Part shown: positions 405 to 33,448 of the stretch, piece by piece
Position numbering within the stretch: the first letter of the stretch is position 1
Layout: the number at the start of each line of letters is the position of its first letter
Source of the DNA: Dehalococcoidia bacterium
Lineage (GTDB): Bacteria > Chloroflexota > Dehalococcoidia > Bin125
Length of the DNA: 64,000 nucleotides
Direction of reading: 5' to 3'
NCBI GenBank assembly: GCA_963662615.2
Contig: CAXXSR010000001.1
Location: 128,001-192,000, forward strand
Notes under the pieces: model-generated
What the model was told of the DNA's origin: nothing
Seen by the model: only the letters and a program-made list of their open reading frames with translations
Database searches by the model: none
Made by a program: the position numbers and the translations under genes

Positions 405-673
405 GTTGGCCAGACGGTGGTGCACCGCGACCGCGGGACCCCGTACACGGCGTGGGCGTTCGGCCAGCGCCTGCGGGCGGCGGGCCTGCTCGGTTCGATG
501 GGCCGAGTTCGCCTCGGCGATCTTTGAGTGGAACGAGGCCTGGTATCACCCGCGTCGTCGGCACACCGCCATCGACGATCACAGCCGCGTCGAATACGAA
601 CGCCTTCACGAAGCCGCGGAGGATGCGGCATGTTCACCACACCCGAGCAGTGCGGAAAACCGGGGCAGGCTCA
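405..673 (+). mobile_element. IS3-family transposase remnant (integrase-core 3' part, internally deleted) with right terminal repeat
   Basis: VVHRDRGTPYTAWAFGQRLRAAGLLGSMGRV then AIFEWNEAWYHPRRRHTAIDDHSRVEYE, typical of the IS3 OrfB C-terminus; ends ...GGAAAACCGGGGCAGGCTCA. Confidence 0.75.
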
Positions 674-704
674 ATGTGGAACAGTCCTGTCCGACACAGA
701 GATC
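667..704. repeat. 38-bp palindrome family, copy 1
   Basis: AGGCTCAATGTGGAACAG-TC-CTGTCCGACACAGAGATC. Confidence 0.8.
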
Positions 705-744
705 ACTTCAGGGCTGGAGGATCGCTGCGGCTGGGCCCGCGCCG

Positions 745-1308
745 TGGGGAGGCGCGGGTGGGACGGGCTGGCAGGAAGCGGAGTTCGAGTCGTTGGGGAC
801 GCCGTTCCGGCAGCGGCCGTCGCGGATGGAGGAGGCGGTGGCGGTGTTGCGGGCGTGTTGGTCGGAGGAGCCGGTGCGCTTCGAGGGTCGGTACACGACG
901 GTGCGGGAGATGAGCATGTTGCCGAAGCCGGTCACGCCGGGGGGGCCGCCGATCCTCTTTGGCGGGGCCGTGCCGGCGGCGGAGGAGCGGGCGGCGCGGC
1001 TGGGGGACGGCTGGATTGGGCTGAGGCGCGTCAGCCCCGAGGGGGCGAGGGAGTCGATGGGGCGGCTTCGCTCACACCTCGCCAAGAACGGCCGCGACGG
1101 TGACGCGTTTCCGATCCAGTGGACGACGCCGTTGCGGGAGGACGTGGGAGAGCTGATCGCGACGTTCGTGGGCTATCGGGAGGCGGGGGCGAGCCGGCTG
1201 GGGGTGTCGATGCCGAGCAACGACCCCGGGGCTAAGCTGGCGGTGGACGAATATTTGCGGCAGTTGGAGGTCGTGTTTCGGGAGGTGTGGCCGGCGGTGC
1301 GGGGGTGA
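745..1308 (+). pseudogene. 5'-truncated LLM-class (luciferase-like) flavin/F420 oxidoreductase
   Basis: GTGWQEAEFESLG...RMEEAVAVLRACWSEEPVRFEGRY...PKPVTPGGPPILFGG...RAARLGDGW; N-terminal third missing. Confidence 0.75.
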
Positions 1309-1421
1309 GGGGGGAAGCGCCGGCGAGCCGGCGGCGCGGCGTGCACCCTCCTTCTTAATACGGTCACTTCCGTTTGCGGGTGGGTTTCGCCCGCCGTGTG
1401 TGCGGTATGAAGCGGCGTCTC

Positions 1422-1459
1422 GGACTCGATGTCGAACGGTCCTGTGCGAGATGGAGTTC
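1422..1459. repeat. 38-bp palindrome family, copy 2
   Basis: GGACTCGATGTCGAACGG-TC-CTGTGCGAGATGGAGTTC. Confidence 0.75.
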
Positions 1460-1540
1460 GCCGCTGGATCGCGCACTCGCGCACAACCAGAGCACCAGCA
1501 CTGACTTCTACGTCGCCGGGAGGCCGATCCGCCGTTGTGG

Positions 1541-1850
1541 TTACGAAACTGCGATCGCCTTCGAGACTTCCAGGTCCGGGGCGACCTCCGGGTTCACTTT
1601 GAGACCGCCGCAGGCCTTCGCCAGCTGGGGGACGCAGTCAGCGGCGAATATCCGCATCTGCTCCTCGGTCTCCTGACCACTGAATCCGCCCATCTCGTCG
1701 GCCAGGATGCCCTGGCGGATCTGGTCCACCAGCCCCCGCTGGAAGCTCTCGTGCGTCTCGGCCAACGTGCCCGAGTTCACGCGGATCCCTTCCGCGGCGA
1801 CGCTGGGCAGGTCCGTCGGCCCGGTCTGGAAGATCGCGAGTTCAAGCATC
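1541..1850 (-). pseudogene. Chimeric gene fragment ending in an LLM-like C-terminal tail
   Basis: GGFSGQETEEQMRIFAADCVPQL resembles the last helix of luciferase-like monooxygenases; no full gene present. Confidence 0.4.
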
Positions 1851-2094
1851 CGTCCCTTTTTCGCCAGTCTGATGCGGACCGCGCCGAGCGCTGCGCGTGT
1901 GGCCTGCCCGCACTGCCCGGTCCCCTGCAGATACCCGACCGAAGCTCGCTCGGCTTCGCGGCTAGTTCCGCACCCGTGCCCCGGTCTGATCGCAGCGCCG
2001 AAAAACCGACCTCTTGTGTAGCCGATCAGGGGGCGCTTGTCTATCCGGGCGCGCCGCCGTACGCCCCTGCCCTGCCCCCGGACAGCGTTCAACC

Positions 2095-2132
2095 CGACTC
2101 GATGTCGAACAGAGCTGTCCGACATAGGATCG
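2095..2132. repeat. 38-bp palindrome family, copy 3
   Basis: CGACTCGATGTCGAACAG-AG-CTGTCCGACATAGGATCG. Confidence 0.85.
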
Positions 2133-2248
2133 GACACGGTGTTGGGCGGCGGGCTCCTGGAAGCGAAGCCCTTGTCTCCACATTAGAGGAGGGCGTCAGG
2201 TGCAACGTGCCACGGTGCCGGCCCGGACGCGGTACACTGCGCTGCGGC

Positions 2249-7574: not shown

Positions 7575-7844
7575 GATCTGCCTCCTTCTCTGTTCCTCGT
7601 TGTCTGTCACCATTTGGCTACGCGTCATCCGTCCCGCGCAGCCTTCGTCTCTTCGCCCTCCTCGTTGATGCAGTTCTTGGCTGCCCTCCCTCCGCCCCAG
7701 CAGGGGCCGGACCTCGCTGAATCCTTGGCCTCGTTCTTTCGCGCGGTCGTGATCTCTAAGCAGACTACGCCGCTAGGCGCAATCCCAGCGAACGTGTTCT
7801 GGTTAACACAAAGCGGTCCACTTGGCAACCCGGCCGCCTTGAAT

Positions 7845-7884
7845 CGAACTCTATGTCGGACAGACCTGTCCGACATAGAATCCG
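7845..7884. repeat. 38-40 bp palindrome family, copy 4 (closest to consensus)
   Basis: CGAACTCTATGTCGGACAG-AC-CTGTCCGACATAGAATCCG. Confidence 0.9.
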
Positions 7885-7945
7885 AGACGCCGTCGCCGAA
7901 CCTGGCCTGCGCGCAAGCATCCGCACGCGATCGAATATTCGTGTT

Positions 7946-15042: not shown

Positions 15043-15292
15043 CAGCGTGGGACGCTTTCGTGACAGGCGATGCGGAGGCCGACCTCGCCGCGCCGGAGCA
15101 GACGGTGCGGGATCTGGCGGTCAAGCTCGTGCCCCGGCTGCGAGTTGCCTGCGTCACCGATCCGCTTGACACATGCCGCTAGCCGAGCATCCATGTCATC
15201 GATGGGCCTTCCAACTGTCGCAGCTGCGCACCCGAGCTCCGCGGCGAACCCGCCTCACCTGCGTTTCCGCCGGCGCCGATGGAACGAGAGTG

Positions 15293-15330
15293 AATCTCTA
15301 TTTCGGACAGACCTGTCCGACATAGGATGG
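15293..15330. repeat. 38-bp palindrome family, copy 5
   Basis: AATCTCTATTTCGGACAG-AC-CTGTCCGACATAGGATGG. Confidence 0.85.
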
Positions 15331-15934
15331 GGCTGCGCACAGAGGAACAGGCCACGGCAACCGGAGGTACTGCGGGCGCTGCCGCGGATGCACCTCCTCC
15401 GGCCTCCGCAGCTGCTAGCCTCAACCAGGCGGGCCGTCGCCATCACGGGAACTGAAATCAGCCCTTCGTTGCCCGATCATCAGTGCGTCCACGAGAAGAC
15501 GAACTCTCCCGAGGTGCTTCGCTCGGTCGCGGATGGAGTTGCGCTACCCGATGACGTCAAACTTCGCCACGTCTGGCGGTGTCCGCACTGCGGGCATGTG
15601 GACCGGATCGGTCTGGTGAACGCGCGGCACGTGCACCCCGCGATCGTGCGGCGCATCGAGACATGGCTGGCGGGCCAGGAACGACAGGCGAAGTGAATAC
15701 AAGCGGTGGCTCCCCGGTCAGCGCGATCGCTATCGGTAATCGTCGCGGGATGACTCATTACACCTGACAAGGCGAGGGAGGGCAAGACCCTCTTTCCATC
15801 TGGAAGACAACGTCTGAATCCGAAGCAGATGGAGTTTTGAGCCCAGCACCTCGGCCCCGGAGCCGGAGCTGGCGGAGCAGAAAGTCGATCATTCTCGCGC
15901 CCGCTGGCGCCGCGGGGACTGAGAATCGGACCAG

Positions 15935-15973
15935 CCATCCAGAGTCGGACAGATCTGTCCGACATAGAGTTCG
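15935..15973. repeat. 38-bp palindrome family, copy 6
   Basis: ...AGAGTCGGACAG-AT-CTGTCCGACATAGAGTTCG. Confidence 0.85.
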
Positions 15974-16135
15974 GCATCGTTCCCGGAGCTCTAGACGTCG
16001 ACAAGAGAATTCCCGAGTCGCTGCCTTTCCAGCTGTGCTTCCTCCCGCGTTCCCATCTCCGAGGCGCCGCTCGACTCCGGTGGGCGCAGTGCAAAGTCCG
16101 GATCTGGGCTCACGATGGGGTCTGGAGACAGCACA

Positions 16136-19878: not shown

Positions 19879-19897
19879 TGTGGTGTCTCAAAACTCC
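19879..19897. mobile_element. Orphan IS-type terminal repeat
   Basis: TGTGGTGTCTCAAAACTCC, related to the reverse complement of 16136-16158. Confidence 0.5.
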
Positions 19898-20029: not shown

Positions 20030-20210
20030 ACGCCGGGGGTCGTCATTTTCTCCGCCTCCGCCACACCTTCGCGATCTGGGCCATCGAGAACCACACCCGC
20101 GAGTTGGACGTGCAGTTCCTTCTCGGCCCCTCCCTTCGGCGATGGTGCGGCGCTACTCGGCGACGTACGACGCCGCCAAGGCGGCCGCAGCGCACGCGGC
20201 CTTTAGCACC
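20030..20210 (+). pseudogene. Tyrosine recombinase/integrase C-terminal remnant
   Basis: RLRHTFAIWAIENHTRELDVQFLLG(P for H)S, frameshift, MVRRYSATYDAAKAAAAHAAFS (box II and catalytic Tyr region). Confidence 0.8.
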
Positions 20211-21684: not shown

Positions 21685-21843
21685 GGACACCTCCTCGGCC
21701 TAGGCTGCTCGGAATTCCCACTCATCGACGCCGCACAGGATGGAGCCCTTGCAGGCTGGACGCAAGCACGAATGTCCGCCCCACTCCGTCACGAAATCGG
21801 AGAATCGGGATCCCGTCGGGCATGGTTGGATCGCTTTCTCTCC

Positions 21844-21917
21844 AAAGGCGAACTCTATCTCGCTCCGCACTGTTCTGCCCCGCGTCGAGAACAGTCCTGT
21901 CCGAAATAGGGTTCGCC
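21844..21917. repeat. Palindrome family, expanded (split) variant A
   Basis: GGCGAACTCTATCTCG-[about 28 nt insert]-ACAGTCCTGTCCGAAATAGGGTTCGCC. Confidence 0.75.
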
Positions 21918-21985
21918 GCTGGCAAGGGATTCACGTCCCTGCCATGGCCGCCGCCTCGGCGACTTCGAGCCACTCCCGTCGCCGC

Positions 21986-22054
21986 GCCCGCCCGCACGAG
22001 GTTGGTGCATAGCGGGCGACCCACTTGGCCATCGCCTACGAAGCCGATCTTCAT
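21986..22054 (-). pseudogene. N-terminal fragment of a 3-hydroxyisobutyrate/6-PGDH-type NAD(P) dehydrogenase
   Basis: GGAGG RBS, MKIGFVGDGQVGRPLCTNLVRAG, after which similarity stops. Confidence 0.6.
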
Positions 22055-22106
22055 GGCGACCACCTCCCCGCGACCTGCGCCGCGAGAGCTAGACTGCGGC
22101 GTGGTG

Positions 22107-22209
22107 CGCCAAGGCGGCCGCAGCGCACGCCGCGTTTAGCCCCGCCGCCCGCTTACTCGCAACCGAGGCCAGCGCGGCCGGCTAAGCGCCGGCTTCCCAA
22201 GCAGAGGGT
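22107..22209 (+). mobile_element. Second integrase 3' tail followed by a tRNA-Gly(CCC)-like fragment (att-like junction)
   Basis: AKAAAAHAAFSPAARLLATEASAAG-stop(22183-22185); 32/34 nt identical to 20174-20207; GGCTTCCCAAGCAGAGGG at 22191-22208. Confidence 0.7.
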
Positions 22210-22317
22210 TTGCCGCCGCTGTCCGCGGCGCCCGAAACCCGACCCTTGCGGAAGCCGAGGCGGTGGACATGGCGTTGCCCGTCTGCTTGGCTACGCGAGA
22301 CAAGGGGCGCGCGAACG

Positions 22318-23901: not shown

Positions 23902-24189
23902 TCGGTGAGGCGCCACGACGAAAACGGAGGCGAGCGTTTTCTGTTTGCGCTGCGGGACGGCTGGCAACGAAGTGAGCGAGCGGTCGGGTCGGCCTTTGAA
24001 GAAACGTGCTGATGCCCGTCCGACGGCTCCTCCGTGCCGCCAGCGCGACCACGCCCGTGGAAGTCTTGGCCAGTGTTCGCAGAAATATTGAGGCCCCACA
24101 GCCGAAAGGCGTGTTCGGCTGCGCCAGACTCCGATGCGACTCCAAAGTGTGCCAAATAGTGGCGCCTCCGAACTCCATCCCAGTACAGC

Positions 24190-24229
24190 CGAATTGGATC
24201 TCGGAGAGGTCTGTACGAAATTCAATCCG
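24190..24229. repeat. Palindrome family, diverged copy inside a nested structure
   Basis: CGAATTGGATCTCGGAGAG-GT-CTGTACGAAATTCAATCCG. Confidence 0.65.
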
Positions 24230-24265
24230 ACATAGCGACGACTTGTGTTCGCGGCGAGGACTCGG

Positions 24266-24928
24266 TCAGGCGCTCTCGCGCGCGGCCAGGCCGCTGGCGC
24301 AGGCGATGTCCGTGCCGCCCAGTCCGCAGTAGCCGTCCGGATTCTTGGCCAGGTACTGCTGGTGATATGGCTCCGCGTAATAGAACGTCGATGCCGGTAG
24401 GATCTCCGTCGTGATGACTCCGTGCCCGGCGTCGCGCAGCGCCGCTTGGTAGGCATCGCGGGACGCCTCGGCAGCCCGGCGCTGCGCGTCCGACCCGTAG
24501 TAGATCCCCGAGCGGTACGGTGTCCCCACGTCGTTGCCCTGTCGCATCCCCTGGGTTGGGTCGTGGCTCTCCCAGAAGGTCTTCAGTAGCAGCTCGTACG
24601 TGATCAGCGTCGGGTTGAACACGACGAGGACGGTCTCGTTGTGGCCGGTGCGACCTGAGCAGACTTCCTCATAGGTGGGGTTCGGCGTGAGCCCTGCGGC
24701 GTACCCGACTGCAGTCGAGAAGACGCCGACCGCCTCCCAGAAGCACTGCTCTGCACCCCAAAAACAGCCGAGGCCGAAGATGGCCGTCTCCATGCCTGCC
24801 GGGAACGGCGGCTCCAAGGGGGCGCCGTTGACGAAATGTTCTGGGGGGACGGGCATCCGCTGTTCACGGCCGGGCAACGCATCCGCCGTGGTGGGTATCT
24901 CGGTTCTCGCGCGGCCGAACAAGGCCAT
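24266..24928 (-). CDS. msrA: Peptide-methionine (S)-S-oxide reductase
   Basis: [47 protein letters not shown]. Confidence 0.95.
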
Positions 24929-25015
24929 GGGCATCCCCGCTTCCCTGGGATTCATCCGCCCGCGCCGACAGTGTACCGCGCCCGCCGCAGGGCATGGCCA
25001 CTGCCGGACCGAGCC

Positions 25016-25066
25016 GCGGCTTCCCACGCAGAAGGTCACGGGTTCCAGCCCGACACGAGCGCCCGC
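25016..25066 (+). pseudogene. Degenerate tRNA-Gly(CCC)-like 3' fragment
   Basis: GCGGCTTCCCACGCAGAAGGTCACGGGTTCCAGCCCG: anticodon loop, AGGTC variable loop, GGTTC T-arm. Confidence 0.55.
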
Positions 25067-25294
25067 AGAATCTCCGACAGGCGCCGCAGAGCGACCGAGA
25101 TGTGCCCTTCCTCCGAGATGAATTGGGCTTCGCAGTGGGGAATGGCCGCGGCCACAGCGCGCCCAATCCGAATCGGGACGTGTACGTTGCGGCCGCCGTG
25201 CCAGAGCAGCACGGGGTCGGCCGCTGCCGTCCGACATCGAGCCCGGTACGCGCCGCCGGCTGCCGGCGGCGATCAGCAGATGCACGTCGCTCTG

Positions 25295-25363
25295 CAAAGG
25301 CGAACTCTCTCGCGGTCAGCAATGTTCTGCACCGCATCAAGAAAACGACTGTCCGAGATATTC
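25295..25363. repeat. Palindrome family, expanded (split) variant B
   Basis: CAAAGGCGAACTCTCTCGCGGTCAGCAATGTTCTGCACCGCATCAAGAAAACGACTGTCCGAGATA, colinear with 21844-21908. Confidence 0.75.
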
Positions 25364-25460
25364 TACGGCATGGTTTTCAGGCGACCCGCTGAGCTACATC
25401 AGTGGGGTACACACCGCTCGCGTTGAAGACGACCGACGAGGGGCAAACCCTGCCGGGCAT

Positions 25461-25500
25461 CGGACCCTATGTCGGACGGTATTGTCCGACGTAGAGTTCG
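25461..25500. repeat. 38-40 bp palindrome family copy
   Basis: CGGACCCTATGTCGGACGG-TA-TTGTCCGACGTAGAGTTCG. Confidence 0.85.
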
Positions 25501-25582
25501 AGCCCTCACAAGGCGTCCCCATGGCCTCGCCCTGCGGTCTCGTCTTACCGGGAGCGGGCGTCTGGGCGGTTAGACTCCGCAC

Positions 25583-26836
25583 ATGCTCACGCGCCTGCCT
25601 GCCTTGCAGTCGCCCGACTACCGGCTGTTGTTCTACAACATCGTGCTGGCGGAGGCGGCGCGCTGGGCGCTGATGCTGGCGCGCGGCTGGCTCGTCTTCC
25701 AGCTCACGGATTCCACCGGCGCCGTGGGGATCGTGACGTTCGCCGGAATGGCGCCGTTCCTGTTCTTGGGACCGCTGGCGGGCGCGCTGGCAGACCGCTT
25801 CGACCGACGCCGTATGGCGATCGCCTCCGCGACGCTGGGCGTCACGTTCTCGGCCGCGCTGGGCGCGCTGGTCGTGATGGACGCCGTCGCCACGTGGCAG
25901 GTGGTGATCTTGGCCGTCCTGCAGGGCACGACGATGGCGACGGTGGGTCCCGCCCAAGAGGCGCTGCTGCCGAGCCTGGTGGCACGCACGCATCTCCTGA
26001 ACGCGGTGGCGCTCAACGGCGTCGGGCGTTACGGCTCACGCGCCGTGGGGCCCCTCGCCGGCGGTGCGGTGCTGGCGACGTTGGGCGTGGGCGCCGTCTT
26101 CTTCCTCTCGGCCGGCCTGCTCTTCCTGGCCGTCGTTCAGTTCTGGCGGATTGGCTGGCGTCCGGCCGCGGCGCCCGCATCGACGGGGACGCCGTTGCAC
26201 CGGCTCGGCGCCGAGGTAGCCGAGGGGATGCGCTACGCGTGGCAGGACCGCCGGGTGCGGCTGGTGCTCTCGCTCCTGGGCGCGCACTGTGGGCTGACGA
26301 TGGCGTTCGACTCCCTGTTGCCGCGGCTGGCGACCGACGTCGGCGGGGGCAGCACGACGTTCACGGCGATTCTTGTGGGGATTGGCGTGGGGGCGCTGGT
26401 GGGCACGCTGGCGCTGTCGCAGCTGCGGCAGGAGGCGGTGCGGGGATCCGTGCTCGCCGCGACCGGGCTGGGCAGCGGGCTGGCGATGATCGTCCTGGGG
26501 CTCGCACAGACGCCGGCCATGGCCGTGACCGGCGCGGCGCTCGCCGGCGGGACGCAAGCGACCTACATGGCGCTCTCAGCGACGTTAGTGCAGACGATCA
26601 TTCCGGACCATCTTCGGGGCCGGGTGATGTCGCTTTATTTGATGCTGGCCGCCGGTCACATGGCGTTCATGAACCTGGGCTTTGGCTTGTTCGCGGACGA
26701 GGTGGGCGTCCGCGTGCTCTTGGTGGGCCCGGGCGTGATCTGGGTGGGCGTCTTCCTGCTGGCCACCCTGACGCTGACGGACCTGCGCCACCTGCTGCGG
26801 CGCGGCGATTTCGTCTCGACCGAGGGCGTTGCTTAG
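25583..26836 (+). CDS. MFS transporter (MFS_3/EntS-like), probably leaderless
   Basis: GWLVFQLTDS, GALADRFDRRR, PDHLRGRVMSLY; TAGACT -10 is 6 nt before the ATG. Confidence 0.88.
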   Translation: MLTRLPALQSPDYRLLFYNIVLAEAARWALMLARGWLVFQLTDSTGAVGIVTFAGMAPFLFLGPLAGALADRFDRRRMAIASATLGVTFSAALGALVVMDAVATWQVVILAVLQGTTMATVGPAQEALLPSLVARTHLLNAVALNGVGRYGSRAVGPLAGGAVLATLGVGAVFFLSAGLLFLAVVQFWRIGWRPAAAPASTGTPLHRLGAEVAEGMRYAWQDRRVRLVLSLLGAHCGLTMAFDSLLPRLATDVGGGSTTFTAILVGIGVGALVGTLALSQLRQEAVRGSVLAATGLGSGLAMIVLGLAQTPAMAVTGAALAGGTQATYMALSATLVQTIIPDHLRGRVMSLYLMLAAGHMAFMNLGFGLFADEVGVRVLLVGPGVIWVGVFLLATLTLTDLRHLLRRGDFVSTEGVA

Positions 26837-26874
26837 GGCCTCCCCAGGCCCGCGTGAAGAGACGGGAGGACAGG

Positions 26875-28101
26875 ATGTCAGACACCGAACCGTCCCAGGC
26901 AGGTGCGCGGGCCCCAAGTGAGGCGCACTGGTCTGCCTTCCGCTCGCGCATCCCCGCCACCTCCCACTGCATCTACTTCAACTCCGGCTGGTCCGGCCCG
27001 CTCCCCAGTCCCGTTGTGGAAGCGATCGAGGGCCGGCTGCGTCGGGAGTGGCGCGAGGGACCGACCACGCAGGCCGTGCAAGACGAACTGCTGGCGCTGC
27101 GCGAGCGGGTGCGGGCGCAGTTCGCCGCACTCATCCAGGCCGAAGCCGAGTCCGTGGTATTGACGCAGAACACCACGGAAGGGATGAACATCGTCATCAG
27201 CGGGCTCGAGTGGCGGGCAGGCGACGTGGTCGTGACGACGACGATGGAACACAGCTCCGGCCTGGTTCCCGTCTACTACCTGGGAGCCCGGCACGGCGTT
27301 GAGGCGCGCTACGTCTCCCCAGATGTCGCCGAAGCGTCCGCCGACACACTGCAACGCTTTTACGAAGCGATCACGCCGGGTGTAAAGCTCGTCGTGATCA
27401 GCCACATCTCCTACTCCACGGGGCTGGTGTTGCCGCTGGCGGAGATCGTGCAGCGGGCGCACGAGGTGGGGGCACGGGTGCTGGTCGACGGGGCCCAGTC
27501 CATGGGGCAACTGCCGCTCGACCTCTCAAGCTGGGAAGTCGATTACTACGCGGTCCCCGCGCACAAGTGGCTGCTGGGGCCGGATGGGGTTGGTGCGCTC
27601 TATGTGCGGCGGGACTTGATCTCAAGCCTGGAGCCGCGCGCGGTGGCCGGGAAGGCGGCGCGCTCATTCGCGTTCGATGGGAGCGGATTCGAGCCGCAGC
27701 AGGACGACATCGCGAAGTTCCAACTGACCACGTCGAGCGGTCCGCTGTTGGCCGGCGTGGAAGCCGCTCTGGCGTTCTATGCGGAGGCCGGCCCCGCCGC
27801 CGCGGGGGACCGAATCCGGTCGCTTGGTGCGGCGGCGGCGGACGCCCTTGAGGCCGTTGCCGGGGTGACGGTGGTCAGCCCACGGCGATCGGAGACGCGC
27901 AGCGGCCTGGTCTGTTTTCGTGTCGCTGACCGGGAATGCCGGAGTGTGGCGGAAGCCCTGCAGCGTGACCACGGCGTCGTCTGCCGCGCGGTCGCGGAGC
28001 AGAACACCGTGCGCTGGTCGATGCACTACTTCAGCACGGAGGAGGAAGTGCGGAGCGCCGTCGCAGCGCTTACGGCGTTGGTCGCGGCGAGTGAGTCGTA
28101 A
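26875..28101 (+). CDS. Class V PLP-dependent aminotransferase-fold enzyme (C-S lyase/cysteine desulfurase-like)
   Basis: YFNSG, TQNTTEG, EHSS, SHISYSTG, LVDGAQ, PAHKWLLGP; GGAGG RBS. Confidence 0.88.
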   Translation: MSDTEPSQAGARAPSEAHWSAFRSRIPATSHCIYFNSGWSGPLPSPVVEAIEGRLRREWREGPTTQAVQDELLALRERVRAQFAALIQAEAESVVLTQNTTEGMNIVISGLEWRAGDVVVTTTMEHSSGLVPVYYLGARHGVEARYVSPDVAEASADTLQRFYEAITPGVKLVVISHISYSTGLVLPLAEIVQRAHEVGARVLVDGAQSMGQLPLDLSSWEVDYYAVPAHKWLLGPDGVGALYVRRDLISSLEPRAVAGKAARSFAFDGSGFEPQQDDIAKFQLTTSSGPLLAGVEAALAFYAEAGPAAAGDRIRSLGAAAADALEAVAGVTVVSPRRSETRSGLVCFRVADRECRSVAEALQRDHGVVCRAVAEQNTVRWSMHYFSTEEEVRSAVAALTALVAASES

Positions 28102-28291
28102 CGGTCGCTGGAGCCGCGTCGAGCGCTTGGGCGCCGGTCGCCCCCTGCCCGCGCAGCAGGAACGTCTTACTGCCAGATCGTCCCGCCTTCCTCCGAGCGA
28201 ATCGTGACAGGAGCCGTCGGGCTGATTGTGGCCCGCAGCCAGGCGCCAATTGCGCCGTTTGGTCCGCGTCTCGGATATGATCAGCGCTCCC

Positions 28292-29491
28292 CTACGACAC
28301 CGCGTGCATGATCTCCGCGAAGCGCTCCAACTGCTGGTCCGACTTCTCCTTCGACATCAGCCCGATTTGCCACAGCAGCACCCAGTACTCGAAGTGGAAC
28401 CGATCCTGGACCTCCTGCACCTTCGCCTTCACCTCGTCCATCGTCCCGATCAGCAGGTACTGGGACTTGACCATCCGCTCCGCCAGCGTCTCCCCCGGCG
28501 ACGGCACGGGCCCCTCCTCCCCCGGCAGCCGGAAGGTCTCGTAGAAGCCGAAGTGCTTGAAGTACGTCCACACCGGCGCCACGTACTTTTCCACATACTC
28601 ATCGATATCCTCCCTCTCATCGACGATATACACCTCCCGCACGATCGCGATGTGCTCCCCCAGCGCGTAGTCCCGCCCGTGCTCCTTGCACACCCGCTGG
28701 AACGTCTCCGCCAACTCCTGCACCCGCTCCAGCGGCCCCTGCAGCACTGTCGGAATGATGTCCTGCTCCCCACACCACTCCATCGTCGCCGGACTCACCG
28801 AAAACGCCTGGAACAGCGGCGGATGCGGCTTCTGGTACGGGCTCGGCACCACCGACACCTTCTGCACGATCCCCTCGTCGTCCACCTCCCCCGGCACCCC
28901 CGCCTCCCGCGTCAGATCCGCCGCCGGCCAGTCCGTGTTGGGGTACGGCACCATGTACCCTTCCTGCTTCCACTCGATGGCGTCTTCCGTCCAGGCCTTG
29001 CGCATCAGGTTGAGGTGCTCTTCGAACACCCGCCGGTTCTTCAGGTCGATCTCCGACTGATCCGAATACGTCCCCTGCGCCCCGTACCTCTGCCCCAGCA
29101 CGTTCGTCCAGCGCCGCTGGTACCCCCGCGCCAGCCCCACGAAGAACCGCCCCTGCAGCATGTGGTCGATCATGGCCGTCTGCTCCGCCAGCCGGATCGG
29201 GTCCCGCGTTGGCAGCACGTAGCCCAGCTGCCCGAGCCGCAACTCTTTCGTGTGCAACCCCAGGTAGAGGTTCAGGATCCCCGGGTCCGGTGACACCTCC
29301 AGCCCTTCCGAGTGGAAGTGGTGCTCCGTGTGGCACATCCCCCAGTACCCCAGCCGGTCCGCCGTCTTCGCTGTGTGCACCAGGTACTCCAGCATCACCT
29401 GGTACTGCTCCGCGTCCCGCCCCACCGGCCGCTTCGCCGCCCGCGTCTCTGGGTCCGCCATGATCGGGTAGACCTGCAGAATCGTCTTCAT
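28292..29491 (-). CDS. LLM-class flavin-dependent oxidoreductase
   Basis: TEHHFHSEG, DPIRLAEQTAMIDHMLQGR, PSPYQKPHPPLFQ. Confidence 0.9.
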   Translation of the reverse strand: MKTILQVYPIMADPETRAAKRPVGRDAEQYQVMLEYLVHTAKTADRLGYWGMCHTEHHFHSEGLEVSPDPGILNLYLGLHTKELRLGQLGYVLPTRDPIRLAEQTAMIDHMLQGRFFVGLARGYQRRWTNVLGQRYGAQGTYSDQSEIDLKNRRVFEEHLNLMRKAWTEDAIEWKQEGYMVPYPNTDWPAADLTREAGVPGEVDDEGIVQKVSVVPSPYQKPHPPLFQAFSVSPATMEWCGEQDIIPTVLQGPLERVQELAETFQRVCKEHGRDYALGEHIAIVREVYIVDEREDIDEYVEKYVAPVWTYFKHFGFYETFRLPGEEGPVPSPGETLAERMVKSQYLLIGTMDEVKAKVQEVQDRFHFEYWVLLWQIGLMSKEKSDQQLERFAEIMHAVS

Positions 29492-29763
29492 CCTCGCACC
29501 CTCTTCCTACCTGCCCGTGCCGATCGGGCTCGCGCACAGGATCGCCCCCGCCCGCCGTCCCACGCAACCCCCACCCCGCGACCCCCGCTGCCGCCAACGC
29601 CGAGAGCCCGTCTGCTTCGTCGTCGTCCGAGAAACCGCCGCTCCCTGAGGGAGGGAGAGTTGCGGGAGCCTCGGGAATAGCTGGTTCGCCCGTCGGCGCC
29701 TCCAGCGTCGTATCAGCGCTGCGATCGCGTGCGCTTGCCGGATCGATTTCATGATGCCAAGTT

Positions 29764-29801
29764 CGACCCTTTGTCGGACAGATCCGTCCGACCTAGAATC
29801 C
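29764..29801. repeat. 38-bp palindrome family copy (first of a pair)
   Basis: CGACCCTTTGTCGGACAG-AT-CCGTCCGACCTAGAATCC. Confidence 0.8.
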
Positions 29802-29870
29802 TGCACAGCGCACCGTCGGGTAGGCGTGTGGGCTCTAGAGCCGGACGTTGCGCTTGCCGACTCCTGAATC

Positions 29871-29908
29871 GGACTCAATGTCGGACGGACGTGTTCGACA
29901 TCGAGTGC
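29871..29908. repeat. 38-bp palindrome family copy (second of a pair)
   Basis: GGACTCAATGTCGGACGG-AC-GTGTTCGACATCGAGTGC. Confidence 0.8.
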
Positions 29909-29968
29909 AAGTCGACGCGAGCCGGGGGGTCGGATCCGCGTTCGCGGAGCTTCCAGAAAGGTGCACGA

Positions 29969-30769
29969 ATGATCGCAGACCTGACAGGGAAGAAGGCGCT
30001 GGTCACCGGCGCCGGATCGGGGATTGGCAAAGGCATCGCGGAGGTCTTGGCCGCTCAGGGCGCCTCGGTGGTGGTCGCGGACCTGAACGAGGCTTCCGCC
30101 GAAGCCGTGGCCAGAGGCCTTCCCGATGGCCGCGCGCTGGCGCTCCATCTCGACGTCGGCGATCCCGCATCGGTCGAGGAAGCAGTGGAGCGAATGCGCT
30201 CCGAATGGGGCGCGCTGGATATCCTGGTCAACAACGCGGGCGTCCGCTCCGCGAGCGGCGAGCCGCGGGCGCTGGACCAAGAGGAGGACTGGGACGCCAC
30301 GCTGAACGTGAACCTGCGCGGTACGGTGCGATGCTGCAACGCCGTCGTGCCGCACATGCGCGCTCGTCGCTCCGGCAAGATCATTAATATCGCCTCCATG
30401 GCGGGACATGCCAGCCGCCGCACCGGCGCAGCGTACGGCGTGAGCAAGGCGGCGGTCCTTCGCTACACGAAGGGGCTGGCCGCGGAGCTGGCTACCGACG
30501 ACATCAATGTGAACGCGATCTGTCCAGGAGCGGTCTGGACGCCTTTGCAGGAGACGGGTGAGCGGGCGAGGGCCGGACTCGACGCCGGCGTGCCCAGCGC
30601 CGAAGTCGAGAAAGGCTTCATTGAGCGGTACAAGGCCGTTATCCCGCTGGGACGCGCGCAGACCGTCGAGGACATCGGCAAGGTGGCAGCGTTCCTGGCG
30701 TCGGACGATGCGCGCAACATCACCGGTCAGTGCATCCACGTCGACGGCGGGGCAATTCTGCGCGACTGA
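29969..30769 (+). CDS. SDR family oxidoreductase
   Basis: TGAGSGIG, NNAG, YGVSK, NAICPG. Confidence 0.93.
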   Translation: MIADLTGKKALVTGAGSGIGKGIAEVLAAQGASVVVADLNEASAEAVARGLPDGRALALHLDVGDPASVEEAVERMRSEWGALDILVNNAGVRSASGEPRALDQEEDWDATLNVNLRGTVRCCNAVVPHMRARRSGKIINIASMAGHASRRTGAAYGVSKAAVLRYTKGLAAELATDDINVNAICPGAVWTPLQETGERARAGLDAGVPSAEVEKGFIERYKAVIPLGRAQTVEDIGKVAAFLASDDARNITGQCIHVDGGAILRD

Positions 30770-31097
30770 GCCGCGGCGGCTGGATCAGATCGTGAGCGGA
30801 TGGGTTGGGGCCGGCCGCCTGAAGTCGAACTCCATTGCAGCAATGACCGAGGGAACCGCCGGCGGCGTCGAACAGGCGGACTTAGGGAACGCGCCACTCG
30901 AACGCGCGCGTGGTGTCGAAGAGGGCTCTCGGACAGCAAGCTCAGTTCAAAGCCGGCCTCGTGAGCGGTGCGCAAAAGGCGAATTCGTTGACCGTGTCGC
31001 GTAGACGCGCGTTGGCGACTCTGCAGGTGCTGCACCTGGGCATTGGCGGCGCAACCGACAAGGTCGGGACGCACTGAAGGCCTCTGGACCTCTCTGG

Positions 31098-31736
31098 CTA
31101 TTCGGCCTTCCCCGCGCGCGGGGCCAGGGCGTTCCATACATCCCCCAGGGCGTAGACTTGCTTGAACGTCTGAGAGACTCCCTGCCACATCTCCTCCCGC
31201 GCCCGGTCAGCTCCTCCCTCGTCGCCAGCGGCCAGGGCCAGTTTGAGCTGGGTGGAAATCACCTCCTGCCTTTGTGCGGCTTCGCGCGCAGCTTTGGCCG
31301 CGGACTGGGCCGCGGCGACGAAACGGTCGATCAGGGTGTCCACGGGCGTCTGCGTATCGGTTTCAACATCGTAGGCAGGGGAGGGCCTGAAGCGGGTGGG
31401 GTGGCGGCTGCCATCCTCATTGCGACCGGTGTGGGTTGGCTGGATGTGGGGGGTGACCGACAGGTACATGATCATGGGTTCACTGCCTGGGTTCCGCACC
31501 TGGTGGGGCTCGTCGACCAGGGCGACACACAGTTGCCCCGGACCCAGCTCGGCTTCTTCGCCCGCGATTTTGAAGTGGGCTCTGCCCTGCAGGATCAGGA
31601 AGATCTCGTGACCCAGGTCGTGACTATGCAGGTCGCCCACCTGTCCAGGCTCATAGCGAAAAAACCGGGAGCGAATCTGCGGGGTGACCAAGATATTGCG
31701 GCTGTCGCGCTTTGAGTCGAAGACTTGAATAGGCAT
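31098..31736 (-). CDS. Cupin domain protein
   Basis: HSHDLGHEIFLILQG...PH; helical C-terminal extension. Confidence 0.85.
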   Translation of the reverse strand: MPIQVFDSKRDSRNILVTPQIRSRFFRYEPGQVGDLHSHDLGHEIFLILQGRAHFKIAGEEAELGPGQLCVALVDEPHQVRNPGSEPMIMYLSVTPHIQPTHTGRNEDGSRHPTRFRPSPAYDVETDTQTPVDTLIDRFVAAAQSAAKAAREAAQRQEVISTQLKLALAAGDEGGADRAREEMWQGVSQTFKQVYALGDVWNALAPRAGKAE

Positions 31737-31830
31737 GCTTCTTCTCCCTCTGAGTCGTCCGGCTCGTCCATCTTAGGCCGACGCCAGCGCGGTTCTGAGC
31801 CTGCCCCGGTCCCCCGGAACGTTCGCGTCT

Positions 31831-31926
31831 CGAGATCATGCCGCAAGTCCTGTCCGAGATACAGTTCACCTTGGGAACACGCGGTCGCCAGGCAGGGTGG
31901 GATCCAGCCTGTCCCACATAGAGTCC
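31831..31926. repeat. Two degenerate palindrome-family copies
   Basis: Right arms CTGTCCGAGATACAGTTC (31850-31867) and CTGTCCCACATAGAGTCC (31909-31926). Confidence 0.65.
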
Positions 31927-32137
31927 TTGCGCCTCAGATGCGAAGACCGCGGGGAGCACCAGGCTCCTTTTGCTCCCTAGCCGCACGACACCGCTCTGTG
32001 GCCACGACAGACTACCGCGGGCCCGAGGCTTCCCCTGCCACCTTTCAGTCTGATCACGTTGTTCGATCGCCTGGGTAGACGGGCGGGCCTGAAGCACACG
32101 CTTGCGCATCGCTTCCGGCCTCGACGATTGACACCGG

Positions 32138-33124
32138 CTACGCTGGCTCGCTGTCAGCAGGTGGCACGACGTCGATGACGACGATCCCGGTTTTCTGCTG
32201 CGTCTCCACGTAGCGGTAGGCATCGACGATCGCCTCAAGGGGATACGTTCGATCGATGACCGCGCGAAGGTCGCCCGCCTCCATGCGGTCCTTGAGGAAC
32301 TGGACGAACTCCGTTCCGGCCTGTACTGGGAGCGGGATGATCACCCGCTTGCTCCGGGTGATCGAGAACCAGAGCATCAGGAGGGGGTTCTGCCAGAACG
32401 GCCCTAGGTCGGTCGTGGCGAAGAGCCCCTGAGGCTTCAGCAATCGCCGACAGCGGAAGAACGTGGTCTTGCCCACGGCGTCCAGGGCACAGTCGAAGTG
32501 GTCACCGATCTGGGTGAAGTCCTCCGCAGTGAAGTCGACGACGCGATCGGCGCCGAGGGAGGTAACGAGGTCGAGCTGTCGTGTCCCGACGACCGCCGTC
32601 ACGTCGGCACCGAGGGACTTCGCGAGTTGGACCGCCGCCGTGCCGATGGCGCCGGACGCGCCGTAGATGAGGATCCTGTGGCCGGGCTGGAGGCCGAGCC
32701 TTTGGAGGCAGCTATGTGCGTACCACGCGCCCTCGCATAGCACGGCCTCATCGAAGTGGGCGCCCGCCGGCATGGCCGCGATCGCTCCGTCATCGGGCAC
32801 GCAGAGGTACTCCGCATGCGCTCCGAACTCATCGGGTGACATGCCGAACACGCGCTGGCCTGGGTGGAAGGCTGTGACACCCGCGCCGACCACCTCGACG
32901 ACGCCAGCGAACTCCATGCCGAGGATCGTGCGCTTCGGCCGGAGCAGGCCGATCATGGCGCGGACAAAGAAGGGGTGGGCGCGGCGCATACCGCAATCGG
33001 TGCGGTTGACCGTCGTCGCATAGACTTTGACCAAGACCTCGCGCGCCTGCGGCACAGGCTTCGGCACGTCGCGGATCTCAACGACGTCTGGCGGTCCGTA
33101 GCGTGTATTGACAGCCGCTCTCAT
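32138..33124 (-). CDS. NAD(P)-dependent MDR-family (quinone oxidoreductase-like) dehydrogenase
   Basis: YGPPDV, TVNRTD, GMEFAG, IYGASGAIG, VIDRTYPL. Confidence 0.9.
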   Translation of the reverse strand: MRAAVNTRYGPPDVVEIRDVPKPVPQAREVLVKVYATTVNRTDCGMRRAHPFFVRAMIGLLRPKRTILGMEFAGVVEVVGAGVTAFHPGQRVFGMSPDEFGAHAEYLCVPDDGAIAAMPAGAHFDEAVLCEGAWYAHSCLQRLGLQPGHRILIYGASGAIGTAAVQLAKSLGADVTAVVGTRQLDLVTSLGADRVVDFTAEDFTQIGDHFDCALDAVGKTTFFRCRRLLKPQGLFATTDLGPFWQNPLLMLWFSITRSKRVIIPLPVQAGTEFVQFLKDRMEAGDLRAVIDRTYPLEAIVDAYRYVETQQKTGIVVIDVVPPADSEPA

Positions 33125-33322
33125 GGACTCTTCCCTCCGCGACCGCGGTTTCGCGTGGCTCGGCGGTTAGGCCGCGATTCTAAGAGCACAGGTCTAATCC
33201 CCTCAAGACGACCACTGGACAGAGGGCCCACGCGGGTGTTCCTCGCCTCCCGCGGGCCGCGGCGGCCGATGAGAGGCAGGGGAGCTATGAGCCATGAGGA
33301 GTTGTGAGGTCGACCCGTAAGT

Positions 33323-33448
33323 CGGACTCATGTCGGAAAGACCTGTCGGAGATAAGAATCGATTCTCGTCTCGTGTTCAATCTCGGGAAACGGACTGTGG
33401 AGCGCAGCGCGAACTCTACGTCGGGTACATCTGTCCAACACAGAGCCC
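33323..33448. repeat. Two palindrome-family copies at the 3' boundary of the methyltransferase operon
   Basis: CGGACTCATGTCGGAAAG-AC-CTGTCGGAGATAAGAATCG (33323-33361); GAACTCTACGTCGGGTAC-AT-CTGTCCAACACAGAGCCC (33411-33448). Confidence 0.75.

Follow-up and report, generated by a model that had tools for sequence, protein, structure and literature searches.

A family of intergenic palindromes clustered in tRNA-Lys integrase islands of a Dehalococcoidia genome

The window, the whole 64-kb stretch of DNA analysed here, contains copies of a palindrome family that we take, at about even confidence, for lineage-specific and decaying double-stranded DNA repeats of REP/NIME-like type, confined to acquired, rearrangement-prone islands. 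An nhmmer profile, started from 46 seed copies and iterated to convergence, shows 78 loci across the 2.66-Mb genome and no hit once that sequence is reversed, which confirms the existence of the family proposed by an earlier reading of the sequence alone.

Palindrome unit and copies in the window

All 16 sites listed by the sequence-only reading are diverged copies of ...TCTATGTCGGACAG-NN-CTGTCCGACATAGA..., although the idealised 38-mer given for them has a single match at ≤3 mismatches (7846-7883, 2 mismatches; 0 of 100 shuffles). The unit is longer than the 38-40 bp previously assigned. As read from the sequence, it has two inverted arms of ~22 nt, a 2-bp centre and two GTCSGAC boxes per arm, so that the whole unit spans 44-56 bp (about 45-55) with four boxes, 12-13 bp or about one helical turn apart, and symmetric ends, CTAT...ATAG. 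As claimed, variation is greatest at the centre: among the 61 in-register copies the central dinucleotide is AC/GT in 22, AT in 19, GA/TC in 10, TA in three and others in seven. Several boxes are lost in many copies, and two half-copies (C1 62179 and C2 303793) are truncated at the centre or close to it.

Window sites were called at nhmmer E<0.01. Thirteen of the 16 listed sites are called (667, 1422, 2095, 7845, 15293, 15935, 21844, 24190, 25461, 29764, 29871, 33323 and 33411), 25295 is recovered by BLAST, and 31831 and 31895 are marginal. The profile found no copy missing from that list and none in the 64-kb window beyond 33452, so the claim that the last 30 kb lacks the palindrome holds. 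The palindromes (unstranded) and one integrase relic are as follows, with z values for single-stranded DNA folding:

666..715, palindrome copy (nhmmer E=4.9e-7; z=+0.48)
1412..1469, palindrome copy (nhmmer E=6.5e-8; z=-0.98)
2085..2142, palindrome copy, duplicated with its left flank (nhmmer E=1.7e-11)
7836..7894, best-preserved palindrome copy (nhmmer E=7.6e-16; 20-nt arms 90% complementary; z=-5.7)
15285..15339, palindrome copy (nhmmer E=1.4e-9; z=-2.54)
15939..15980, palindrome copy, outer left arm degenerate (nhmmer E=3.1e-9; z=-2.70)
20053..20207, + strand, C-terminal end of an Xer-like island integrase relic (tblastn with the intact paralogue, residues 256-307, 81-96% identity)
21838..21922, composite ~70-bp variant, two overlapping, partly deleted palindromes (nhmmer E=1.4e-5)
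24187..24237, palindrome copy (nhmmer E=1.2e-6; z=+0.58)
25290..25360, composite variant, second direct copy (BLAST; uncalled by the profile)
25452..25502, palindrome copy (nhmmer E=1.1e-9; z=-5.8)
29755..29811, palindrome copy, first of a pair (nhmmer E=1e-9; z=-1.9)
29862..29916, palindrome copy, second of the pair, 107 bp from the first (nhmmer E=5e-10; z=-1.12)
31831..31936, two marginal copies, right arms good, left arms poor (direct reading; uncalled at E<0.01)
33314..33370, palindrome copy (nhmmer E=8.9e-7; z=+1.26)
33409..33452, last palindrome copy of the window (nhmmer E=0.0017; z=-1.41)

BLAST copies of the composite 21838..21922 are found at window 25290-25360, C1 112210-112279, C1 1991414-1991483 and C2 28544-28607; the copy at 25290..25360 matches 21838-21908 at 80% identity across 71 bp and two further copies at 84-87% across 115-121 bp. 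The copy 666..715 separates the N-terminal fragment of a TPP enzyme from a fragment of a luciferase-like gene.

Some arms had been described as covarying. In the 61 in-register copies, Watson-Crick pairs within copies number 849 versus 826 ± 11.6 after exchange of arms among copies, so arm covariation is not a family property; left-arm and right-arm variants are also unlinked among copies. Folding of 12 window copies as single-stranded DNA gave z<-5 in two and z>-1.5 in six. Most copies are decaying relics, with arms drifting independently and hairpin potential mostly lost. RNA terminators were rejected as a candidate (no covariation, weak folding, divergent gaps). The wider proposal that the palindromes are RNA hairpins, as U-less terminators or mRNA stabilisers, appears highly improbable: it agrees with their intergenic position and a few strong folds (z=-5.7 and -5.8), but not with the lack of arm covariation, the six of 12 window copies that fold no better than shuffles, the 13 of 39 occupied gaps between divergent genes, or the absence from the window of any Rfam match at or above its gathering score.

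Conservation along the arm is uneven, from 0.51 to 0.98 with a peak at TCG.A.AG; a protein could still be reading the sites, and profile ascertainment may contribute to the unevenness. We consider it decidedly unlikely that the palindromes are protein-binding arrays, whose four palindromic GTCSGAC boxes would be bound by a protein possibly serving to silence, insulate or organise foreign DNA. Conservation is position-specific, with three positions at up to 0.98, and the arms do not covary; this fits recognition of the duplex over that of a hairpin, and the helical spacing of the boxes and the restriction of the sites to acquired DNA point the same way. Nevertheless, no fixed distance to gene starts was found, nine of the 39 occupied gaps are convergent, several boxes are gone in many copies, and no candidate binding protein conserved beside the palindromes was found, the orphan proteins of the islands having no matches in Pfam, NCBIfam, PHROGs or PADLOC.

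Genome distribution, islands and lineage

Genome-wide, 76 of the 78 palindromes are intergenic versus a non-coding fraction of 16.8% (binomial p ~3e-56), and all 13 called window copies lie between gene calls, 'intergenic' depending on our own codon-usage gene calls. Five islands, 176 kb in total or 6.6% of the genome, contain 71 of the 78 (binomial p ~3e-75), which is not the uniform spread of an ordinary REP family. The clusters range over gene-containing islands of 2-106 kb that coincide with tyrosine-integrase islands, and small clusters without integrase are found at C1 751-753 kb and C2 300-307 kb. The close pairing noticed in the window is real, since many copies have a neighbour at 58-160 bp. 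Island palindromes occupy tandem, divergent and convergent gaps alike (13 divergent and nine convergent among 39 occupied gaps), so there is no cassette polarity; 72 of the 111 island gaps are palindrome-free, and modules between palindromes measure 0.05-7 kb in any orientation. Neither orientation bias nor 3'-end bias was found, and the spacing to gene starts lacks the fixed value expected of a transcription factor operator.

The islands differ from the rest of the genome in gene G+C (66.2% versus 68.6%), GC3 (82.8% versus 86.0%, p=6e-10) and median intergenic gap (316 bp versus 126 bp), and are gene-poor. Five paralogous integrase genes each follow a tRNA-Lys 3' fragment or the tRNA-Lys gene itself, and the island integrases use as attachment site the 3' part of tRNA-Lys(UUU), a sequence with no resemblance to the palindrome. 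The islands arose as Xer-like tyrosine-integrase elements integrated one after another at this tRNA gene. The island at C1 55-161 kb has a 24-nt tRNA-Lys fragment 3 bp from its first palindrome, and the copy 33409..33452 lies at its right edge; in three cases, palindromes adjoin the tRNA-derived attachment repeat (3, 149 and 206 bp) at the element end distal to the integrase gene. C-terminal integrase relics lie at C1 60.6, 62.5, 97.5, 112.3 and 148.05 kb. The relic reported near 20030 of the window is real (20053-20207), and the one reported at 22107 was not found by tblastn at E≤1.

The islands contain no recombinases other than Xer-like integrases and integrase relics. The integrases score 65 bits with the integron model TIGR02249, whose cut-off is 265, and no integron integrase was found; nor was any RAYT or Y1 transposase gene found in this genome. 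No serine recombinases lie within the islands, all being outside.

Most non-IS gene duplicates of the genome sit in the islands. Dispersed repeat pairs (≥85% identity, ≥250 bp) number 84, of which 33 touch an island and the remaining 51 are, by our reading of the table, mostly IS copies and within-gene tandem repeats. Island genes are 70-99% identical to core genes, and some island segments, 98.6-99.8% identical to core loci, start and stop mid-gene.

Core sites at ≤2 mismatches number 20 in this genome, none in 18 genomes of the same family and one in 12 of the same class. Among 185,579 species representatives the exact core occurs only in single-site genomes (29 stretches); nine metagenome stretches match the core only, and no full unit was found on metagenome contigs. 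Around integrases of 81-84% identity in four related genomes, 220 kb contain no family member, versus 44 rows in 58 kb here.

It is quite unlikely that the palindromes are passengers, that is, genome-wide REPs of an unsampled donor lineage imported with the tRNA-Lys elements and never multiplied here. Integrase-borne islands of atypical composition, genes as similar to core genes as orthologues from a related donor would be, old and decayed copies, and a genome in which no transposition footprint was seen would all be expected from import. Against it, the species representatives have at most one exact core site per genome, metagenome contigs lack the full unit, the 98.6-99.8% segments with mid-gene ends resemble within-genome duplication rather than import, and two clusters have no integrase.

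Duplication and recombination at the palindromes

Segmental duplications within the islands carry palindromes along passively. Palindrome-plus-flank duplicates link 2085-2142 with C1 1978 kb, 7836-7894 with C1 1987 kb and C1 1710 kb, and C1 84.2-84.4 kb with C1 87.1-87.4 kb. The copy 2085..2142 and its left flank are 85-90% identical to C1 1978161-1978603, with homology that runs out at the far arm's outer box; 7836..7894 and its paralogue C1 1987015-1987070 show a swapped outer left arm and a 48-bp indel at the palindrome edge. An MsrA duplicate (94% identical) begins 18-19 bp off the edge of 24187..24237, and a gene at C1 1925 kb has a 92% copy, 1.27 kb long, that lies between two complete palindromes, with homology stopping 13 and 27 bp from their edges. 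The truncated and duplicated genes noticed beside palindromes are indeed present. Flank homologies reach ≤25 bp of a palindrome edge in 27 cases, the partner locus being palindrome-free in 13.

Metagenome contigs from two runs of two studies, matched at 90% likeness, contain a joint 21904->25364 that links the two direct composite copies (21838..21922 on the left, 25290..25360 on the right) and skips 3.46 kb, with depths of 7.9 and 10, near that of the surrounding genome. No other locus able to yield this joint was found in the assembly, which is 93.6% complete, and the joint could come from a second strain or from a locus missing from the assembly. The joint, the swapped outer arm and the homology tracts stopping at palindrome edges are hints of recombination at the palindromes.

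The breakpoint enrichment anticipated by the sequence-only reading, tested on recent-duplication ends with their intergenic location taken into account, is not significant: 11 of 42 intergenic ends lie within 60 bp of a palindrome versus 16.7% expected (p=0.08). Homology ends at variable distances of 0-100 bp from the palindromes, not at one base. No filled/empty site pair was found in the genome, the two paralogous sites with paired flanks being both filled, and there was no evidence in this genome of palindromes moving on their own. One palindrome lies 12 bp from the end of an IS481-like element; the nearest IS ends differ from palindrome ends, and target-site duplications, empty sites or a parent IS with matching ends were not found.

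We regard as unlikely, but still worth weighing, that these are site-specific recombination sites of module shuffling, similar to attC arrays or pdif sites and served by another recombinase or by host or island Xer-like enzymes. Such a system would insert and excise gene modules, among them copies of chromosomal genes, between the palindromes. Arms of 12 nt around a 6-bp centre are the core-site geometry of tyrosine recombinases, and the palindrome parses in this way around AGNNCT. Xer-like enzymes as sole recombinases of the islands, the proximity to attachment repeats, the bracketed 1.27-kb gene copy, the 3.46-kb module skipped in contigs of two studies, the hybrid outer arm of 7836-7894, the two half-copies and the unlinked arm variants, as expected of reassortment at the centre, also argue for it. 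However, the integrase has its own site at tRNA-Lys, unlike the palindrome, and the islands that carry this integrase family in four related genomes show no palindromes in 220 kb; integron integrases were not found and serine recombinases all lie outside the islands. Furthermore, modules have any size and orientation with 72 of 111 gaps palindrome-free, homology ends are spread over 0-100 bp, duplication ends gave p=0.08, and most copies are too decayed for efficient sites. The reading first proposed is partly supported, by the clustering with tyrosine-integrase islands, the integrase relic near 20030, the truncated and duplicated genes beside palindromes and one population-level 3.46-kb indel ending in palindromes; its integron-like part fails on the lack of IntI and polarity, the tRNA-Lys attachment site, palindrome-free related islands and decayed arms. 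Two candidates were rejected on these grounds: attC sites (no IntI, no polarity, arms without covariation) and the island integrase's own site (tRNA-Lys, unlike the palindrome).

Comparison with known repeats

Like attC sites in CALIN arrays, these imperfect palindromes divide unrelated genes and have an integrase family nearby; in contrast, their arms are symmetric without strand-specific bulges, IntI is lacking (65 bits versus a cut-off of 265), and there is no co-orientation or one-site-per-ORF rule, with modules up to 7 kb and most copies unfolded. In the sections available of PMC6449649, PMC13141974 and PMC7399989, the pdif/dif modules of Acinetobacter plasmids are shuffled gene modules bounded by short inverted-repeat recombinase-type sites, beside which some IS insert. 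The pdif sites are 28-bp XerC-6-XerD, host-dif-like and of alternating orientation. Xer-type recombinases and the IS481-like element 12 bp from a palindrome are the counterparts here, although the unit is longer, the palindromes are at most candidate recombination sites, and the likeness is one of description. MITEs such as Correia elements are also small non-coding intergenic repeats with inverted ends; unlike them, the arms here abut with 2 bp between, and no target-site duplication, empty site or matching parent IS was found.

The dRS3 repeats are ~20 bp and abundant genome-wide in Neisseria, and dRS3/NIME have been associated with recombination and with the insertion of islands or prophages. 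Compared by description only, the unit here is longer and restricted to integrase-built islands. As far as the available part of Di Nocera et al. (2013, PMC3733652) describes them, dRS3/NIME are concentrated in large mosaic intergenic regions interleaved with other repeats, CGTC-type REPs have no dedicated transposase, and GTAG-23 REPs are clustered in Thermomicrobium roseum. The present family resembles dRS3/NIME and CGTC-1 REPs in its inverted-repeat units without dedicated transposase, and REP/BIME in being short, intergenic, palindromic, lineage-specific and arranged in pairs or groups with variable linkers; by description only, its gene-containing islands of 2-106 kb differ from the single intergenic blocks of GTAG-23 REPs. 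A lineage-specific REP family, the plainer alternative of the sequence-only reading, is closer to the evidence, but not in the strict definition: the genome has no RAYT/Y1, the unit measures 44-56 bp with four boxes versus 20-40 nt in REPs, and there is no one-sided CGTC tag, nor a GTAG tag, because the ends are symmetric.

In the REP/NIME-like reading that we favour, the islands, assembled by repeated integration at tRNA-Lys(UUU), have since been scrambled and filled with gene copies and fragments, and one perfect palindromic master may have been amplified by an enzyme that can no longer be recognised in the genome. The mutual similarity and palindromic shape of the copies would then make them preferred points of deletion, insertion and arm exchange between gene modules. 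Restriction to islands is atypical for REPs, and a function tied to the islands could equally explain it. In this reading the palindromes mark breakpoints in these plastic islands and perhaps favour them.

Anatomy and placement of the palindromes

Direct reading of all 16 places listed in the window by the sequence-only reading shows diverged copies of one palindrome, although the idealised 38-mer proposed there has a single match within three mismatches (window 7846-7883; none in 100 shuffles). The core TGTCGGACAG-NN-CTGTCCGACA, which has 20 specified bases, occurs 2, 9, 20, 46, 63, and 90 times at zero to five mismatches, respectively, in the 2.66-Mb genome. A profile built from 46 copies with their flanks found 78 loci in the genome and the same 78 in a second round, and no match when the reversed genome was searched with it, which confirms that the palindromes are real. 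In the window, 13 of the 16 sites were called by the profile and the one at 25295 was recovered by BLAST as a composite copy (of 21844), while those at 31831 and 31895 are marginal half-copies. The absence of copies from the latter part of the window was also borne out, with nothing past 33452.

Each unit has a 2-bp centre between two arms of ~22 nt (arm ~ GTCGGAC-TCTAT-GTCGGAC-AG), and the whole contains four near-palindromic GTCSGAC boxes spaced by 12, 13, and 12 bp. The consensus is symmetric, CTAT-GTCGGACAG-NN-CTGTCCGAC-ATAG plus further outer boxes, with a total length of 44-56 bp, and ATAG is replaced by GTAG only in a minority of arms. Some copies show additional conserved outer motifs (CCTTGAATCGAAC..., ...GTCGGACTTTGC, and ...GAGACGCCGTCG). 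Among the 61 copies alignable in register, the central dinucleotide is AC/GT in 22, AT in 19, and GA/TC in 10. About six copies have a composite form of ~70 bp that resembles two overlapping truncated palindromes.

According to gene calls made with a codon-usage caller purpose-written for this genome, 76 of the 78 copies are intergenic, non-coding DNA being 16.8%. By gap class, 39 copies are tandem, 21 divergent, 16 convergent, and two genic, with no preference for gene ends. Five island intervals, which represent 6.6% of the genome, contain 71 of the 78 copies. For comparison, the many copies of a REP family are intergenic and dispersed over the chromosome.

Palindrome clusters on the two contigs (C1 and C2) of the studied genome, with copies from the first-round locus list
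C1 55-161 kb, including the first half of the window: 43 copies
C1 1978-1993 kb: 13 copies
C2 8-20 kb: 6 copies
C2 300-307 kb: 5 copies
C1 751-753 kb: 4 copies

Within the islands, 39 of the 111 gaps of at least 60 bp are occupied (tandem 17/55, divergent 13/29, convergent 9/27) and 72 are empty. In an integron, the cassettes are short, promoterless and mostly co-oriented, and each carries a single site at its 3' end; this attC layout was rejected on the orientations of the occupied gaps, the empty gaps, and modules that range from 50 bp to 7 kb. A transcription-factor operator lies at a constant distance from the promoters of its regulon, and this candidate was rejected as well, given copies in every gap class, including the nine convergent gaps, at distances to gene ends that vary between 1 and 1371 bp.

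Two weak copies (1199306 and 1199550) are located at C1 1197531-1199876, between a tyrosine integrase gene and tRNA-Arg(CCT), which is the second tRNA with palindromes next to a tRNA attachment site.

Arm pairing and comparison with known sites and repeats

Watson-Crick pairing of the arms was 849 within copies vs 826 +/- 11.6 between copies (2000 shuffles, maximum 870), and the common variant at arm position 10 shows no linkage between the two arms of a copy. Single-strand folding of window copies gave z<-5 in two of 12, and six of 12 had z>-1.5, no better than shuffles. In view of the weak pairing excess, the unlinked variant and the few folding copies, the palindrome structure is not maintained, which makes folded sites of the attC type, substrates of RAYT, and RNA hairpins less likely. 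In attC sites, a conserved asymmetry (extrahelical bases, R and L boxes) is retained by compensatory change; the pairing and folding values led us to reject a folded single strand of this kind. Arm conservation is uneven (0.51-0.98), with peaks at TCG.A.AG, which would fit a protein reading duplex DNA, though the collection of copies may inflate the unevenness. An intrinsic terminator is a stable hairpin followed by a U-tract at gene 3' ends. The copies have no following T-run, half of those folded are no more stable than shuffles, and 13 of the occupied gaps are divergent, so that this function was also discarded. Rfam at gathering scores found no family in the whole window.

Module sites of the Xer/dif type (pdif-like) have two ~11-bp recombinase-binding arms and a 6-8-bp centre, resemble the host dif site, and are recombined by XerC/XerD; the palindrome core could be read as 12-6-12. 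Serine recombinases have five matches in the genome, all outside the islands. In REP genomes, the RAYT gene is typically flanked by REPs. No match to RAYT/TnpA-REP (Y1 HUH, PF01797) was found in this 93.6%-complete genome, the control being positive in six of 14 reference genomes, and none to the IS91-type Y2 transposase (PF04986), a result that carries no information, its control being negative in every reference genome.

According to Di Nocera et al. (2013, PMC3733652), REPs are palindromes of 20-40 bp with a GTAG or CGTC tag at one end, CGTC REPs have no dedicated transposase, and clustered REP families are recorded in T. roseum. Our palindromes behave like these repeats: they lie between genes in pairs or groups, are specific to a lineage, and have no transposase. 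Unlike the REPs described there, they have symmetric ends with no one-sided tag and a longer four-box unit (44-56 bp vs 20-40 nt), and they are restricted to integrase-built gene islands. The comparison with the GTAG-23 REPs published there is by description, not by consensus sequence. No prior description of the family was met in the Chloroflexi extragenic-palindrome literature, a search too narrow for a claim of unpublished status. A scan with the exact core pattern, which diverged families would escape, gave 29 single-site stretches among 185,579 species genomes and, in metagenome contigs, nine stretches with ~22 bp of the core only, mostly of 35-55% G+C. Altogether, the palindromes are best read as aged, degenerating repeats of the REP/NIME type, restricted to the plastic, foreign part of the genome.

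tRNA-Lys integrases and the islands

The genome shows 18 tyrosine-recombinase matches; candidates for the host XerC/XerD are located at C1 1176685 and C1 818097. A set of five paralogues (315-326 aa, no arm-binding domain) is encoded on a single strand, each gene directly following either the tRNA-Lys(UUU) gene (C2 32188-32263) or a 58-73-nt copy of its 3' portion. C1 ends with 6,678 bp (2001306-2007983) that recur with 100% identity at the start of C2 (1-6678). The contigs therefore adjoin, and the five integrase genes make up a single tandem array between the tRNA gene and C1 1978 kb. Since dnaA is also located on C2 (407705-408178) and the cumulative GC skew has its minimum at the C1/C2 junction, the two contigs probably represent a single chromosome split at the tRNA-Lys island, rather than a chromosome and a megaplasmid.

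The same integrase family is found beside tRNA-Lys(UUU) in four related genomes (G004, G008, G009, and G015) that belong to three other genera. On the basis of 81-84% protein identity across genera of the family, these Xer-like integrases make up a horizontally moving island family. G009 also shows a tandem array, with three integrase matches within 31 kb.

Loci of the tRNA-Lys integrase family
C2 6.6-32.3 kb and C1 1987-1998 kb: array of the studied genome
G004, G008, G009, and G015: loci of the related genomes

Features of the 55-161 kb island point to an older array of the tRNA-Lys elements that has been scrambled. At its start, a tRNA-Lys fragment of 24 nt is separated by 3 bp from the first palindrome, and C-terminal relics of the integrase occur at 60.6, 62.5, 97.5, 112.3, and 148.05 kb. 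The last of these is the relic that had been noticed near window 20030 (window 20053-20207); at 22107, where a second had been proposed, nothing was found.

An integron integrase (IntI) carries a specific extra domain. The island integrases score highest on the XerC/XerD models, yet below those cut-offs, and on TIGR02249 they reach 62.6-65.1 bits against a cut-off of 265, over positions 14-180 of 315 only, about half of the profile; identity with IntI was rejected. Their attachment repeat consists of the tRNA-Lys 3' part and ~70 bp of element sequence, with no likeness to the palindrome. In 220 kb around the integrases of the four relatives, the palindrome profile gave no match even at E<=1, whereas it gave 44 rows in 58 kb of the array of the studied genome; the palindromes are thus not part of the tRNA-Lys element machinery. 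A repeat-structure search of six of the 11 loci of relatives found generic G+C-rich palindromes only. With Xer-like enzymes, an attachment site in tRNA-Lys, and palindrome-free islands in relatives, neither the integron-like mechanism proposed for the palindromes nor their link to the integrase is supported.

When 48 ORFs of the window and 133 others from the islands were searched against Pfam, the islands proved to be a patchwork of multi-paralogue metabolic and transport genes, gene fragments, IS481-like transposases, and defence-type genes. The paralogue families include luciferase-like monooxygenases, Peripla_BP_6 binding proteins, MR_MLE enolases, MsrA, Amidohydro_3, and GMC oxidoreductases, and the defence-type genes include SIR2 with nSTAND1, patatin, and a DruE-like fragment. 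G+C, GC3 and codon adaptation are all lower in island genes than in genes elsewhere, and island gaps are 2.5 times longer. PHROGs and PADLOC revealed no hidden recombinase among the orphan island proteins, only the DruE-like/MZB fragment and one PHROG of unknown function. The genes that flank the island, RtcB on the left and RACo on the right, were found in none of the 12 same-family genomes searched, so that synteny with relatives was not usable.

Other features of the islands and their edges
Window 16243-19791 (-): ORF of 1142-1182 aa with good codon usage and no Pfam, NCBIfam, PHROGs, or PADLOC match, flanked by two palindromes and an integrase relic
Window 33475-40752 (-), right after the last palindrome: RACo-type corrinoid activase, B12-binding protein, and neighbouring genes, which look like a corrinoid methyltransferase cluster
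C1 100919-103607 (10919-13607 of the fetched stretch L036, -) and 104627-105370: defence-type pair formed by a SIR2_2 gene and an adjoining nSTAND1 NTPase gene, close to a gene for a patatin-like phospholipase, all within a palindrome island
C1 1998104-1999840 and 2000922-2001329 (fetched stretch L039), in the tRNA-Lys array: 579-aa protein with an MrfA Zn-binding domain that matches the C-terminal part of DruE (Druantia), and a fragment of a Type ISP restriction-enzyme specificity domain
C1 53675-55422 and C1 1976309-1978066: 1.76-kb segment repeated inverted, 97% identical, at the edges of the 55-kb and 1978-kb islands, with the RtcB 3' end and an MR_MLE enolase gene; at the 1978-kb edge RtcB is only a 94-aa fragment

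The inverted 1.76-kb repeat suggests a large inversion or duplication between the 55-kb and 1978-kb islands.

Rearrangements at palindrome edges

Dispersed repeat pairs (>=85% identity, >=250 bp) number 84, and 33 of them have one or both partners in islands; by reading of the table, the other 51 are mostly IS copies or within-gene tandem repeats. The palindrome islands are free of one IS of 1.24 kb, which elsewhere has five or more copies at 99% identity and several at 87-91%.

Copies of the 1.24-kb IS
C1 2185-3431
C1 681101-682345
C1 1192387-1193633
C1 1422242-1423491
C1 1650779-1652024
Others

Segment C1 89222-90488, 92% identical to C1 1925 kb, has complete palindromes on both sides, with ends 13 and 27 bp off the palindrome edges. 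This 1.27-kb segment is probably not an IS, since its ORF appears to encode a low-complexity secreted-type protein and not a transposase. Other island gene copies from elsewhere end 18-85 bp from palindromes. In 27 cases flank homology ends within 25 bp of a palindrome edge, and the other locus is palindrome-free in 13 of these. Among the intergenic ends of recent island duplications, 11 of 42 are within 60 bp of a palindrome, vs 16.7% expected at random intergenic island positions (p=0.08). When paralogous upstream regions were aligned three ways, a 48-bp indel fell precisely at a palindrome edge; the outer arm matches at only 11 of 19 bases between flanks that are 93-97% identical, which is an arm exchange or a conversion.

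Copies have been duplicated passively with their flanks. A MITE has terminal inverted repeats that match an autonomous IS, a target-site duplication, and both filled and empty sites. When the side-by-side flanks of palindromes were sought elsewhere in this one genome, the two paralogous sites recovered were filled and none was empty; the ends of the neighbouring IS481-like element, TGTGCCGGCCCAAAAC, are unrelated to the palindrome, and the MITE was rejected. The IS481-like element (C1 81771-82892; TGTG...CCCAAAAC ends) lies 12 bp from a palindrome and, because its ends are unlike the palindrome, was rejected as the parent of the family. Similar solo IS ends are found beside the palindrome-flanked gene copy (C1 90380) and beside an integrase relic (C1 62.4 kb). 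The IS481-like element may favour the same gaps as the palindromes.

Of the words sampled from window 24000-33999, half or more were present in each of 18 public runs, from eight studies. We placed metagenome contigs of four runs (four studies) on window 14500-34499 at 90% likeness. In two public metagenome runs, X2 (depth 7.9) and X8 (depth 10.0), a contig runs to 21904, has seven other letters, and resumes at 25364. The two ends of this joint correspond in position, each being in the right arm of one of the two direct composite copies, and the skipped 3.46 kb are also covered by contigs in the same runs, at comparable depth. No other locus of the assembly would yield the joint, which looks like strain-level presence or absence of a palindrome-bounded module; a locus missing from the assembly might also account for it. 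Two low-depth joints also touch palindromes, 21917->24213 (depth 3.7) and 21875->29690 (depth 2.6). The remaining joints, including 20694->32740, 26733->32846, and 16160->26982, are in coding regions of paralogous families or have a depth of 2-4, and were treated as other organisms or errors.

These signs, statistically unproven, are suggestive of palindromes that favour module-level rearrangements. We consider it improbable, at roughly one chance in eight, that they are junction sites of a cassette-like module-capture system in Thermomicrobia-type Chloroflexota, with a recombinase other than an integron integrase. Islands would then be seeded by tRNA-Lys integrative elements and would grow by module capture at the four-box palindromes, and the captured modules would include fresh copies of the cell's own chromosomal genes. 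If true, this would be a second, independent solution to the integron task and a visible case of cassettes made from resident genes. If the REP/NIME-type reading holds, the family is one more lineage-specific set of palindromic repeats, of descriptive value, and an example of a REP-like family without RAYT, confined to integrase-built islands.

The palindromes are a clean marker of the foreign, fast-rearranging 6.6% of the genome. Most of the non-IS gene duplicates of the genome have one partner in the islands, and the organism occurs in samples from eight or more studies; therefore, module turnover at palindromes is directly testable by strain comparison. If the repeats direct module gain and loss, they would bear on how cassette-like arrays are assembled from resident genes.
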